Assembly (NCBI RefSeq): GCF_036971445.1
Contig: NC_091480.1
Coordinates: 82,584,001-82,648,000 of the forward strand
Length of the DNA: 64,000 nt
Direction: 5' to 3'
DNA from: Narcine bancroftii
Lineage: Eukaryota
A model generated the notes under the pieces. It was not told the DNA's origin and did not search any database. It saw only the letters and a program-made list of their open reading frames with translations. Shown here piece by piece: positions 38,265-64,000 of this stretch. The position numbers were made by a program, and so were the translations under genes. The first letter of the stretch is position 1. Every line of letters starts with the position of its first letter.

Positions 38265-39493
38265 TTAAAATATTCATTTTGCTTCATTGTAGGGGCATAG
38301 GGTTCAATGAGAACTGCATTCCAAACTCAGAGATAACCTGATGCAAAAGAGTTTCAACTAACCTTTGTGTATAAAATTCTGACTTGAAGTTAAATAGTTA
38401 CTTAACATTTGAGTTCATCATTTAAAAATAAAAATTCCTGTAATGGAAAGAAAATGGACAAAAATAAATAAAATCCACAGGATCCATCTTCTCGTGATTT
38501 TCTCCAGGATCTCACAAAGACATGAGAAGAAAATGCAACCTGAGCCAAAAGATGCAAAGGGAGGGGTAAGCGAGAAGCTAATCAAAGAGGCAAATCTATA
38601 AGGAGATGAAAGAGGAATGGGAGCTTTCAGTGGCACAGTGCCTTGGGAAAGGTTGCAGCCTGAAATGTTGACCACCTTTTGCCTTCCTTGGATGCTGCCT
38701 GAACCGCTGAGTTCCTCCAGCATGTTGTGTATAGCTAACGGCAAGGTTGAATCAGAATAATGGAAGAGAAGTGAGGTCTCCCAGTCTCAAACTCATCACC
38801 TTTGGGAAGAATCTCAATTTTATCATTTTCCCTACACTTATGCTCTCCAATCTTAACTTTATTCTACCTTTTTGCACTTAACAATTCATATTTGTCAGTA
38901 ATAAATTTAATTTGCCATCCATCTACAAACCCCCATTTCAAACACCCTATTCCACTAGCCTCTAGTAGTCATTGAAATCCATTGATACCATCTTCACAGT
39001 TCAATAAGCTTAAAATATCACGTCAGTACTCAAACCTCTCATGTCTTCAAACCTCTCATGTTTCATACTAATTATCATTTTTATGAAACCAATAAATGTG
39101 CAGTGCACAGTTCCTTGGAGGGAATAAGCCAAAGCCAAAAATGGATAAAGCTTTAAAATATTTACTACAAGTTCCAGCTAGTCAGCTGATAACTTTTTAT
39201 TTTAAACATTGTGCAATAAGACATCAGCCATAAATATTTTATACAAGATGTTATGTATTATGTAATTTTTAAAAAGATTATTTAGTTTTGAATTAATCAC
39301 TGATCATGGACTTTGATAAAGGGAAAAAAGCATATATTTTAGGCCTGGTAGTCATGGACGGACAGCTTGCATTGTTTTTCTAGAGTGATTTTCACCAACT
39401 TATAATAAAGTACTTTACAAAGATCCTCAGTAAATGCTCAGTGGTCTGCCAGATTATGAACATCTTTTACAGACAATCTACTTTAGGGATAGG

Positions 39494-40288
39494 GAATGGA
39501 GAAGAGGTGAATGGAGAAGAGGTGAATGGAGAAGAGGTGAATGGAGAAGAGGTGAATGGAGAAGAGGTGAATGGAGAAGAGGTGAATGGAGAAGAGGTGA
39601 ATGGAGAAGAGGTGAATGGAGAAGAGGTGAATGGAGAAGAGGTGAATGGAGAAGAGGTGAATGGAGAAGAGGTGAATGGAGAAGAGGTGAATGGAGAAGA
39701 GGTGAATGGAGAAGAGGTGAATGGAGAAGAGGTGAATGGAGAAGAGGTGAATGGAGAAGAGGTGAATGGAGAAGAGGTGAATGGAGAAGAGGTGAATGGA
39801 GAAGAGGTGAATGGAGAAGAGGTGAATGGAGAAGAGGTGAATGGAGAAGAGGTGAATGGAGAAGAGGTGAATGGAGAAGAGGTGAATGGAGAAGAGGTGA
39901 ATGGAGAAGAGGTGAATGGAGAAGAGGTGAATGGAGAAGAGGTGAATGGAGAAGAGGTGAATGGAGAAGAGGTGAATGGAGAAGAGGTGAATGGAGAAGA
40001 GGTGAATGGAGAAGAGGTGAATGGAGAAGAGGTGAATGGAGAAGAGGTGAATGGAGAAGAGGTGAATGGAGAAGAGGTGAATGGAGAAGAGGTGAATGGA
40101 GAAGAGGTGAATGGAGAAGAGGTGAATGGAGAAGAGGTGAATGGAGAAGAGGTGAATGGAGAAGAGGTGAATGGAGAAGAGGTGAATGGAGAAGAGGTGA
40201 ATGGAGAAGAGGTGAATGGAGAAGAGGTGAATGGAGAAGAGGTGAATGGAGAAGAGGTGAATGGAGAAGAGGTGAATGGAGAAGAGGT
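39494..40288. repeat. 15-bp minisatellite (GAATGGAGAAGAGGT)x53 in KAT2A intron 11
   Basis: 53 identical units followed by 1-2 degenerate units. Confidence 0.98.
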
Positions 40289-40506
40289 GAATGGGAAAAG
40301 GATGAATCGAAAGTTTAAAATATTAAAACACAAAAATAACAATTGGAAAAAATTCCTCAGGAAGAATTAACTGCTTCATTAAAATGAGCTTCATAAGAAA
40401 TAAATTCAGAAGTAATTAGAATTAGGGCAAATTCTGTCTCAAGTTCTGACTTGAATCTTGATACTGGTAGTTCATTTCTATACATGCTGAATTTTCCATA
40501 CAATTA

Positions 40507-50269: not shown

Positions 50270-50451
50270 CTGGTATAATTAACTTTGTATGCATCAACGT
50301 CTTCATTCTGGGACCTCTGCCGGAATTGAGATGGAGTTTCCAGTTTCCAGTAGTTCAAACAAAGCAGAAACATTTTGGAAAGTTCATACATAGTTTGCTT
50401 TTCTTTGGCAGGAATGTGGCTGAATTTGTACTGAACAAAATTTAGAATTCC
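50270..50451 (-). CDS. KAT2A: KAT2A exon 5 (PCAF_N domain)
   Basis: GILNFVQYKFSHIPAKEKQTMYELSKMFLLCLNYWKLETPSQFRQRSQNEDVDAYKVNYTR. 182 nt. Confidence 0.96.
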
Positions 50452-51111
50452 CTAGTAAAAACAGAAGATGAAATATTTAAATTCAGTAAATATGATGCAT
50501 TTGTATTCAATATTCATTCCTACCCTAATAAAACACTTCTCCTTTGTTCCCCTATAATATTGCTTAAGCACATTATCTAGTGAAATTGTTAAGACTCAGT
50601 GGGGCTGATTTTAACTTCTGAAACTCCATGCCGATTTAATAGTTTAACTACCTGCAAAAAAATATAGATCGAGCTACTTTACTCATTTATATTACGACAT
50701 TCATCTGACAGACTCAGGGCTTTCCGATTCAGGCTGATATAATATTGGCTCTTCCAACATCTGCATATACATCAATGAATCAAATACCTGAGCAGTATCA
50801 GATTAAGCAATGAACAATTCTGGGTAATATAGGTAACACAGATTGCATATTAGTCACGAATTCAAGCTCCATTTCAGAGATTCAAGCACAAAAACAAGTG
50901 GGGCATATCCAAATCAGCTGACTTTCAGATAAGAAATTAAACCAAAGCCTGGATGCAGATATCTAAAGATTGTTGGTGTGCCCCTCGGTCTGAGCCAATA
51001 GTTTCCTCAATCAAGGTCATCAAAAACAGATGCAAAGCCTGTCATCTTCCTGGATTTATAAGAGGGCCAGAATACACTGGTTGCCAGTTGCAAAAACCTC
51101 ATCTTTAAATA

Positions 51112-51594
51112 CAGTGACCCCCCCCCCCCGCATTATTTGAGGTTTTGCTTTCTGCAGTTTCAGTTCCCCATGGCCCGAAAATATTAAATGGAAAATTCCA
51201 GAAATAAACTATTTCTAAGTTTTAAGCTGCACACCGCTCTTAGAAGTGCGATGAAATCTCGTGCCATCCCTCCCGGGATGTGAATCATCCATTTGTCCAG
51301 CGTATCCACACTGTATATGCTACCTGGCATCTCGATTATTCTGACTGTCACAGAATTGCAGTGTTGTGTTCAAGTAGCCCTTTTTTTCTATATTTTTCTA
51401 TTTTGTTATTACTGATAATTATTGTTGTTTAATCTCTTATTGAGCCTAATTTATAAATTAAACTTGGTCATAAGTATGTATGTATAGGAAAAAAAAACAT
51501 TGTATACTGTATACAGGGTTTGGTACTATTCACAGTTTCAGGCATCCACTGGGGGTCTTGGAACATATCCCTGAGGATAAGGGGGGAACTAAAG
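51112..51594. mobile_element. MER44/Tigger7-like Tc1-mariner non-autonomous element
   Basis: TA flanks at 51110-51111 and 51595-51596; TIR-like ends CAGTGACCCCC... and GATAAGGGGGGAACT. Internal strings match the mammalian MER44 consensus as I recall it. Confidence 0.8.
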
Positions 51595-52852
51595 TAATAG
51601 TATTTTCTTGTTTTAATGTTTTTAATTAGTTTCAAAAGTCCCTGGTGATGATAAAACAGCAAAACTGCAATTGACAGCTGTCTGACAAATCTCGTCATGT
51701 GGTCCTGTTTCCTGCAGCCCATTATACCAGGCAGAAGACACATGGCGGTAACAATGGACCTGAGGAAACACACAGCCTGGGACAGATGTTGCCAAAGATG
51801 CATGATCAGCAGAATTTCTCCCGCTCCACCCAAATTCCTACTCCTGATACTTAATCAGCTCTGAAAATCTTTTCTTGTACCAAGTTTATGATAATAATCA
51901 CATAACCAACATCTGTATAAAACTGATTTGTTGAATTCTTGAATAAGCCACCTGTATCTGGAAAAGCTTATCTTTCCTCCCCCCCCCCCGACACTCCAGC
52001 ACAGGTAAAGAAAAAGTACTGCAAAATCCAAGTTTCCAAACTGCATCTCTTCTGTAATGCAACCTCCCTTTACTTTTTCTATTGATGACCAAGATAATTG
52101 TACTCCTCTAAAATTTCTCCTTCATTCCTTCTTCACTCCAAGCAGATATGGTTGTTCAGTCTGTGTTGAAATCAAGCATTCATACTGTCCCATTCTATAC
52201 ACACTCTTTCAGAGGTCCAAAACCTTTGAATTCCCTCTCTAATTCAACTTCCTCCTAGAATGTTCATACCTTTAAAACTTATTTATTCTTTTCAATGTGG
52301 TCGCCAGCACCAACATGAAGGAAGAGCCATGGGGAAGATATTCATCATTAGATTGAAGGTGCCCAAATATCAAGAATGGGACAGAATTAGATTCAGAGAT
52401 CCAAAATTACTTAACTGTGAGGCTAGGGTAAGAGCAGGTCCATGGTTGTTCAATAAAAGTCTATGCACATGATTATTTTCAATCTCAAGGAGATGGAAAC
52501 TCCAGTAAATGCTTCAGCAATTTAACACCTTTGCGTACTTGAAATTCACCCATGTGACTAAATATTGAACAAAGCAATCAACATACTTGGAAAAAGCATT
52601 TTCCTCAAACAGAAGAACACAACAATGCCTAGAGGCAAACAAGAAATCTGCAGATGAGGAGACTGTCTTCTTCTACATATAGCTGAAAAATTTGAAAACC
52701 CCAAAATCTGGAGTCATAATTAGATTTTGGTATCATAACCATAGGCCCACCTTTCAATTAAACATTTTTTATGTTGCTGCTTCTCAACAGGATTTTTAGC
52801 AAAAGTGAACATAACATTAATAAGTAATTTCTTCTCCATTTATAAACCTCAC

Positions 52853-52942
52853 CTGCTCTATACTCGGTTTATCAAATGGGGGACTTCCCAACTTTCCTTC
52901 CACGACAGGTCGCGCCATTTGCAAGATGCATTTCCGTAAAAG
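52853..52942 (-). CDS. KAT2A: KAT2A exon 4
   Basis: LLRKCILQMARPVVEGKLGSPPFDKPSIEQ. 90 nt. Confidence 0.96.
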
Positions 52943-62277: not shown

Positions 62278-63643
62278 GTTAGGCCATGGCTAGGTGATGT
62301 AAACAGGTCACAGTTCAGAGTGGATGCAGAGGAAGTTCATGAGGATGGCTTCTGGGATAGAGCATTTCTGTTATGAGGAAAAACATAATGTGATGAGTTT
62401 TTAGTGAAGCGGAGAAGATGGTTGACATAGCTAGAAACAGATCCTTGTAGCAGAGGCTACAATATTTTTTAGGATAATGGGTGGGAGGTTTAAAGGCATT
62501 TGGGAAGGACAACTTTTATATGGACTGAGCAGCCATATAAGCAGATAAGATGCCAAAATTCCAATGTCTAATATAGGAATGTGAAATGGCTAGTATTTAA
62601 ATAATGTAATGGCATTGCATGGAGGTGTTGAGGATCTGCTACAACTAAGCAAGATGCTGGTGGGACTACTTTGAAAAATATTGAGCAAATGTAGCTCAGC
62701 TATGGGAAACACGATTAAGCTGGAAATCTTACAGAAAACATTCACATGATTTGAAGATAGAGTGCTACTTTTCTCCCAGGAAGTTAGGATACTTTTGGGG
62801 GGGGGGGGGGTGGAGAGATTCATAAAATGATGAGTGGTATGTAGAAGGCACGTTTCTCTTCCCATTGTAGGGGAATCTAAAAGAAGGAGGGCATCGATTT
62901 GAGGGGAATGGTTTAAAAGGGACCAAAGGGGGATAAAATGAAACGAGCTGGAACAGCTAGAAGCCTGTACAGTTGTGACGTTTAAAATGCATTTACACTG
63001 GTACATATGAATGGTTAAAAGGGATATGGGCTGAAAGCGGGCTTGGTCGGCTTGGACAGGTTGAACCGATGGCTCATTCATACCTTAGCGAAGGGCTCAG
63101 GCCCGAAACGTTGATTGTCTATCGACGATGCGTGAGTTTCTCCAGCACCTCTGCATCCCGCTGCAGTCACAGCGCCGGCAGCCTGTTCTATTCTACTCCG
63201 GAGAGCCTGTTTTCGTGCTCTGAAACTCGTTTGACACCAAGATGTTCGCAACTTCTACAAAAGATCATCTGAACCATTGAGACCATTTATTCTGACATGA
63301 CTAGCGACGGCTCGTTTCTGGCGACCCGTGTCAACCAGATAGCAGGGTAAATGACCGCAGAGAGGAATGAAGCTCCGACGCTGGCGATGTCATGAGAAGG
63401 GAATATTCCAAATTCCAGGAGCTACCACGTGTACATGTCAGCAATCCAGTAAATTCCTGGAGAATTACTACTCGACCCGCAGTCATTTATTGAAGATTTA
63501 ACCATAATCTTGGAGATGGGGTTTGAAAAGTACCTTCAGGTAAAACACCAGCTATTGATTTGTGACGTCGAGTTCAATGCAAGCAAAATTATTTTTGGCC
63601 ATCGATCCTGTTTGATGTCACTGATGCAAAATAGTTTTCAAAC

Positions 63644-63798
63644 CTTCCTGAAAATTCATCGATGAGTCATTCATGTCACTCATTCTTATTTAAAGCAACG
63701 CTGAGATTCCGCTGTTATTTTCTGCTCCCGCGTCCGGAGCCCAGCAATGTTCAGCAGATTCTGGAAGCGCCTGGGTCTCTGCCCCCCGGGATATATAA
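63644..63798 (+). promoter_or_regulatory. Heat-shock promoter: HSE, AP-1, second HSE, TATA
   Basis: Perfect cTTCc-tGAAa-aTTCa at 63644-63658; TGAGTCA at 63663-63669; aGCAg-aTTCt-gGAAg at 63753-63767; TATATAA at 63792-63798, about 100 nt before the ATG. Confidence 0.8.
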
Positions 63799-63892
63799 GG
63801 TGTGCGTCCCGCGGGCTGCGGCAGCTCAGCCACTGAGATCTGCCCGTTCACAAGCAGCCGCTTTCAGAGCAGCGACAGGAGACGCGGAGACG

Positions 63893-64000
63893 ATGCTGAG
63901 CTGCCGGACCTGGTCCCCTTGCCGTCTGTGCCCGCAGCCTGTGCACACCCTGTGGCCCGTTCCACTCGCCGCCTTTGAGCCGCTCGAATGCACCGCGTGG
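63893..64000 (+). CDS. N-terminal 36 codons of an HSPB9/Hsp30-like small heat-shock protein (runs off the window)
   Basis: MLSCRTWSPCRLCPQPVHTLWPVPLAAFEPLECTAW; the VxTLWP motif resembles non-mammalian Hsp30/HSPB9 N-termini. GC-rich, preceded by TATA and HSE, and in the syntenic position of HSPB9. The alpha-crystallin domain is not visible. Confidence 0.72.
   Translation, partial: MLSCRTWSPCRLCPQPVHTLWPVPLAAFEPLECTAW

Follow-up and report, generated by a model that had tools for sequence, protein, structure and literature searches.

A Tigger7-lineage DNA transposon in an intron of an electric ray, probably acquired by horizontal transfer

Introduction

An intron of the KAT2A gene of Narcine bancroftii contains a short element that an initial annotation likened to MER44, a mammalian transposon derived from Tigger7, and proposed as a candidate for horizontal transfer. 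The locus raises the question of whether the element belongs to the Tigger7 lineage, and if so, how the same lineage came to be present in a cartilaginous fish and in mammals. The window referred to below is the whole stretch of ray DNA that was analysed, 64,000 nucleotides in length.

We know of no outside source for most of the human DNA transposon families. The origin of Tigger7/MER44 is of interest because it supplies AP-1 sites in humans and has given rise to an exapted exon (PMC6169893, excerpts). Transfers involving mammals are rare. In the vertebrate screen of Zhang et al. (2020), whose species include elephant shark and whale shark, mammals or birds took part in only 24 of 975 transfer events (PMC7070016, excerpts).

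The element and its host intron

The element occupies positions 51112-51594 (483 bp) and has a TA on both sides, as had been described, and the five motifs quoted in the initial annotation were all found, with their order kept, at 51177, 51250, 51280, 51445 and 51536. It lies between adjacent KAT2A exons, in agreement with the site claimed for it, KAT2A intron 4. This intron number follows mammalian numbering, by which the exon at 52853..52942 is presumably exon 4 and that at 50270..50451 exon 5; KAT2A exon 1 was located neither in the final 6 kb of the window nor in the 8 kb beyond it. The features are as follows.

50270..50451, minus strand: KAT2A exon downstream of the host intron, PCAF_N positions 150-208
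51110..51111, no strand: left TA target-site duplication
51112..51594, plus strand: non-autonomous Tigger7-lineage element (MITE), of the commonest class in the ray, with ends matching the autonomous-type copies L132 and L143
51112..51135, plus strand: left terminal inverted repeat, decayed, C-run expanded
51380..51392, plus strand: internal deletion junction (T/A run), in the place of the autonomous element's missing transposase gene
51575..51594, minus strand: right terminal inverted repeat, outer bases decayed
51595..51596, no strand: right TA target-site duplication
52853..52942, minus strand: KAT2A exon upstream of the host intron, PCAF_N positions 119-148

The element consists of approximately 300 bp from the left and 200 bp from the right of an autonomous element, joined together. 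At the point of joining, L132 and L143 run on into the start of the transposase. The window copy diverges by 12.3% from the majority sequence of its family over 447 aligned bases, and its terminal inverted repeats are decayed and were absent from the list of a repeat finder. This single intronic copy is an ordinary dead, non-coding insertion, with no sign of function.

A DHX58 exon in the window is 100% identical to a Narcine bancroftii entry, and the next named matches are rays and sharks, at 63-73%. The host is thus identified from its DNA as a cartilaginous fish, an electric ray. DHX58 (window 4000-25000, minus strand) adjoins KAT2A, as it does in mammals. Two other features of the region may be mentioned. 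A long tandem array with a 15-bp unit is located inside a KAT2A intron (39434-40367), and an ORF for a small heat-shock protein (HSP20) is present in at least three copies with the same translation, one of them inverted, across window positions 63635-64000 and L165:662-8984. The HSP20 cluster is directly upstream of the located KAT2A exons, and may sit in KAT2A intron 1, because exon 1 was not found before it.

The family in the ray genome

When the window copy was compared with the genome it comes from, 40 of 543 candidates matched at E ≤ 1e-47, and the aligned copies stop sharply at the same two end points. The element is therefore not a chance assembly of letters. The majority sequence of 30 aligned copies is 504 bp long, and in it terminal inverted repeats of about 20 bp are plainly visible, within the range of 8-33 bp expected of Tigger elements. 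TA is present at 19 of 22 located 5' ends and at 42 of 52 located 3' ends (TA background 6.5%), which is the target-site duplication of Tigger elements.

Further loci came from three pattern searches with matches and one search that gave a single match. In all 114 loci were examined, of which 113 matched the family, representing 99 distinct copies. Measured from the majority sequence of the family, the 98 copies with at least 150 aligned bases have a mean p of 0.116, a K2P of 0.129 and a non-CpG K2P of 0.088 in local alignments, with a single peak; full alignment of the first 30 copies gave p 0.136 and non-CpG K2P 0.111. In the same 98 copies, 699 of 2339 CpG sites are kept. The internal junctions are not identical in all the copies: 43 are plain, 16 have 24 extra bases, 18 combine a short left arm with a longer right arm, four retain part of the transposase start, and 18 are unclear. 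In four copies of the short-left class (L113, L114, L124 and L133) the GA run at the junction has grown into long microsatellites.

By hand count, 12 of 43 exact-motif matches were also among the 40 BLAST matches, and this overlap gives about 140 copies as a low estimate. The family is likely to be small, of the order of a few hundred copies. Of 26 copies searched for empty sites, two gave a junction-spanning match and only that for L108 looks clean (72% over 114 bases), for which reason the empty-site result is not used as support. An Rfam search of five loci gave one match, at E 0.49, which is a chance match.

An autonomous partner and its transposase

Patterns aimed at the start codon found short derivatives only, and the ends of the family were absent from the best 30 of 150 DDE_1 loci in the ray genome. 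The autonomous-type copy L132 was recognised from one pattern match lying 600 bases from a DDE_1 match. L132 measures about 1.96 kb, has the ends of the family and encodes a broken transposase. Two domains are above the cut-off, DDE_1 (E 5e-30) and HTH_Tnp_Tc5 (E 2e-8), a combination that defines Tigger elements, with or without CENP-B_N. The catalytic triad, counted in the read-through, is DD32D, within the Tigger range of DD29-36D.

One search with DNA and two with protein turned up no near-complete copy besides L132, and the protein argument below is built on this one ray copy. Its right arm has 87% identity, and its age is taken from the family average together with this arm. Other Tigger matches in the ray are at 50% or less. 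Two further copies, L143 and L144, keep the transposase start, which is 78% identical to the first 40 residues of a donkey protein. These two (G000:C24 and G000:C26) are one insertion that was duplicated with approximately 3 kb of flank and whose copies are now 80% identical; they have an extra piece of about 480 bp before the transposase start, the end of which is also found in L132. The ray genome contains in addition eight stop-free pogo-type frames of 440-686 codons (L031-L035, L038, L039 and L041), which are likely to be domesticated TIGD/JRK-like genes or young elements.

The DDE region of L132, with its five stops read as X, matched 49 proteins among 194 candidates. The best matches are from elephant and dugong (74%), followed by two proteins at 72% and a third at 69%, and then by iguanian lizards (66-67%), opossum (65%) and Trichuris (55-61%). 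With the dugong protein as query, the 120 of 131 matches listed include an arowana protein at 85% (35% of the query covered) and a donkey protein at 84% (41% covered). The mammalian proteins contain the published blocks of human TIGGER7 (PMC9219625, excerpts). A comparison by eye of L132 with the published, trimmed human TIGGER7 row found 102 of 118 residues identical in 14 blocks, a count that excludes one deletion-broken block and unaligned single columns (PMC9219625, excerpts). In the tree described below, L132 falls into a core clade with the mammalian proteins that have the TIGGER7 blocks. The Tigger7 identity proposed for the window element is thus supported, by way of the transposase of an autonomous copy that has the same ends.

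According to these protein searches, which speak for presence only, the lineage is found in Afrotheria, donkey, arowana, iguanian lizards and the ray. No other named shark or ray is among the matches listed, although a protein set is a weak gauge of absence. A search of the Atlas gave generic Tigger clusters only. Mammalian MER44 DNA was met neither in exact-motif scans of contigs from viruses, prokaryote genomes and metagenomes, nor by plasmid BLAST, a full-text motif search or in two paper supplements. The name MER44 for the window copy, and the near-verbatim likeness to the MER44 consensus put forward by the initial annotation, are putative; the link to L132 speaks for the name.

Some of the proteins are of interest in themselves. 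P0016 and P0068 are an intact KRAB-Tigger7 fusion in elephants and manatee, 88% identical and annotated in elephant as ZNF404, likely to be an afrotherian domestication. The arowana protein P0086 consists of two tandem Tigger7 N-terminal units without the DDE middle. P0018, P0019 and P0021 are three intact Tigger7-lineage proteins with a common short deletion after the first catalytic Asp, and are possibly a domesticated gene.

How alike the source elements were

A frameshift-aware alignment of L132 with the manatee protein gave 385 identical codons of 520 (74%), with seven stops and five frameshifts. Among the 135 differences, 118 need a single base change and 17 codons need at least two. Neutral decay of the manatee protein was simulated with uniform rates and without a CpG effect or indels, and left 77%, 75% and 72% identity at p 0.11, 0.12 and 0.14, respectively; at p 0.12-0.14 it produced 7-8 stops and 10-14 codons needing at least two changes. 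The 74% identity between ray and manatee is therefore what neutral decay would be expected to leave, implying that the source elements were nearly identical in protein. Similarly, L132 has 78.3% identity (407/520) to the leave-one-out majority of ten core rows, which fits p 0.10-0.11. The donkey and arowana rows of the comparison were not used, as their missing middle distorts them, and some of the mammalian comparators would have been conserved by selection, because they are apparently domesticated. We infer that the ray and mammalian source elements would have been at most a few percent of residues apart.

As a control, DHX58 is 58% identical between ray and newt and 75% between ray and stingray, as against 74% for a dead transposase between ray and manatee. 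This control is one fast-evolving immune gene; the KAT2A exons appear far more conserved.

A careful tree was built from 16 rows, the ray and 15 of 169 proteins. In this tree the ray, elephant, manatee, donkey, arowana, Sceloporus, Anolis and three more rows form one unresolved fork, with support of 93/91, which is below the star threshold of the tool, and an unsettled bootstrap. The branches linking different classes are only 0.003-0.03 long, and the ray tip is 0.23. By the AU test, monophyly of the mammals (p 2e-5) and of the amniotes (p 4e-4) is rejected, but these groups were named after an earlier tree, and the opossum and Pogona rows may be paralogous families. A quick tree of 44 rows agrees with the core fork, and in it four further Tigger ORFs of the ray lie far from this fork. 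It also puts the ray outside the bony vertebrates, on a branch of 0.007 with support of 81, a grouping that is lost in the careful tree.

Origin of the ray family

The ray and mammalian hosts split more than 400 Mya. A published time tree puts the split at approximately 473 My, and DNA transposons drift neutrally under vertical descent (PMC7070016, excerpts). An age near 90 My, or somewhat more, has been given for human Tigger7 (PMC12212084), which is grouped in time with MER44a-d (PMC1914374, excerpts). Taken together these point to transfer, the transposases being more alike at the protein level than vertical descent allows. On this basis, the window copy is a dead element of a Tigger7 lineage that probably reached the ray horizontally, and not by descent from the common ancestor of mammals and rays. 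The horizontal transfer suggested by the initial annotation is thus supported at the protein level, through the decay simulation, the tree and the DHX58 control. Its suggestion of independent invasions by one Tigger7 lineage is likewise likely, and would extend beyond ray and mammal to arowana and iguanian lizards.

The family has a cut-and-paste anatomy and common ends. Its copies fall into three or more internal-deletion classes, form one divergence peak and have decayed. We propose that an active Tigger7-lineage element would have entered the germ line of the ray lineage, where its transposase may have set short deletion derivatives moving in trans during a single burst, after which all the ray copies would have gone extinct as movers and decayed neutrally. 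Nearly the same source element is likely to have separately invaded placental mammals, arowana and iguanian lizards, and a common outside donor would be the simplest guess.

Four other explanations were weighed. That mammalian DNA got into the assembly, by contamination or misassembly, is barely credible. It would account for the likeness to a mammalian repeat; against this, all 14 large contigs carry copies with different flanks, several deletion classes have the ends of the family in common, and the window copy is flanked by ray KAT2A exons. Furthermore, a young ray LINE has landed inside copy L075: the 624 bp that interrupt it share 97% identity with a LINE of the window. Contamination, which the initial annotation had named among the outcomes that would refute its reading, is thus excluded by these checks. 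It is also very improbable that the likeness of the proteins reflects a domesticated transposase gene kept since the common ancestor. There is an intact KRAB-transposase fusion in elephant and manatee, and purifying selection acts on a Tigger7 exon in primates (PMC6169893, excerpts), but ray L132 has transposon ends, seven stops, five frameshifts and non-coding derivatives, and the DDE middle is missing from the proteins of donkey and arowana.

Vertical inheritance would require Tigger7 in the ancestor of jawed vertebrates, with an early burst in a slow-evolving ray lineage and a much later one in mammals. The presence of the lineage in several vertebrate classes, the quick tree with the ray outside bony vertebrates, and the very low mutation rate of sharks (PMC10587355, excerpts) all fit such a history. 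We nevertheless consider it improbable. An active source would have to remain nearly unchanged for more than 300 My along the mammalian, lizard and arowana lineages, the inner branches are near zero, the decay of the ray copy leaves no room for extra divergence, the bony-vertebrate grouping is not kept in the careful tree, and the electric ray is not unusually slow, to judge from its 75% DHX58 identity to stingray. Less easily set aside, though still unlikely, are transfers from related donors at widely separate times, with the ray family a sister of MER44 and purifying selection during transfer keeping the proteins alike. This is a sub-case of the horizontal explanation, with other timing and the same mechanism. 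Transfer does conserve the transposase protein (PMC7070016, excerpts), the ray burst could be of another age, and the ray deletion junctions differ among classes and look locally made. Against it are the protein identity, which allows at most a few percent between source elements, and the putative likeness in the non-coding arms.

Horizontal transfer thus remains the preferred explanation, and the question becomes one of timing. A pedigree of the epaulette shark gave a rate of 7e-10 per generation (CI 1.4-14.1e-10; PMC10587355, excerpts). At this rate a divergence of 9% corresponds to about 1.3e8 generations, so the ray burst may be much older than the mammalian one; an age of hundreds of My would weaken the case for simultaneous invasions and not that for horizontal ones. 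We put forward tentatively, as a possibility that we rate somewhat below an even chance, that human MER44/Tigger7 goes back to one outbreak about 100 million years ago. Carried by a shared parasite, it would have reached an electric ray, arowana, iguanian lizards and placental mammals nearly simultaneously, in marine, freshwater and terrestrial hosts alike. If so, the mammalian burst, being dated, could be used to calibrate the neutral clock in rays, at approximately 0.9e-9 per site per year outside CpG. In general, with a matching family in ray, bony fish and lizards, the timing and path of the mammalian invasion would become open to testing, and the substitution rate of cartilaginous fish, which is disputed, would gain a common time marker.

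Comparison with known systems

Invasions of tetrapods of several classes are known from SPIN, a hAT element, and similar transposons. As in those cases, the ray family probably represents one DNA transposon that is near-identical across distant vertebrates and was separately amplified in them, although SPIN belongs to another superfamily and is younger. Compared with human Tigger7 and MER44A-D, the ray family is alike in its TA target site and in having short derivatives moved by one transposase (PMC5753468, PMC1914374, excerpts), and differs in its cartilaginous-fish host, its few hundred copies and its own deletion classes.

Diaby et al. (2022) claimed Tigger transfers between Eutheria and Chondrichthyes, which matches the ray case in transposon family and in both host classes. 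Their cases concern other Tigger clades, at distances of 0.65-0.70, and their five chondrichthyan elements have terminal repeats unlike those of the ray family (PMC9219625, excerpts). Transfer of Tigger elements among vertebrates is thus known in general, and the ray Tigger7 case would be a further instance. We found no report in the literature of Tigger7/MER44 outside mammals or of Tigger7 in rays, nor any on Narcine and transposons; subscription papers, Dfam, Repbase Reports and most supplements may hold one. The excerpts seen of PMC7386202 and PMC6887750 do not cover the ray case, and those of PMC11195612 deal with primate copies only.

In the tree of Diaby et al., as excerpted, TIGGER7 stands beside nematode elements of Strongyloides papillosus and Trichuris, with no shark or ray (PMC9219625). 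The nematode Tigger-B elements of Trichuris suis, T. muris and S. papillosus are the nearest named invertebrate relatives of the ray family, and the terminal repeat of S. papillosus is nearly that of the ray. Their proteins are 55-61% identical and lie outside the core clade, and they are therefore too distant to be the donor.
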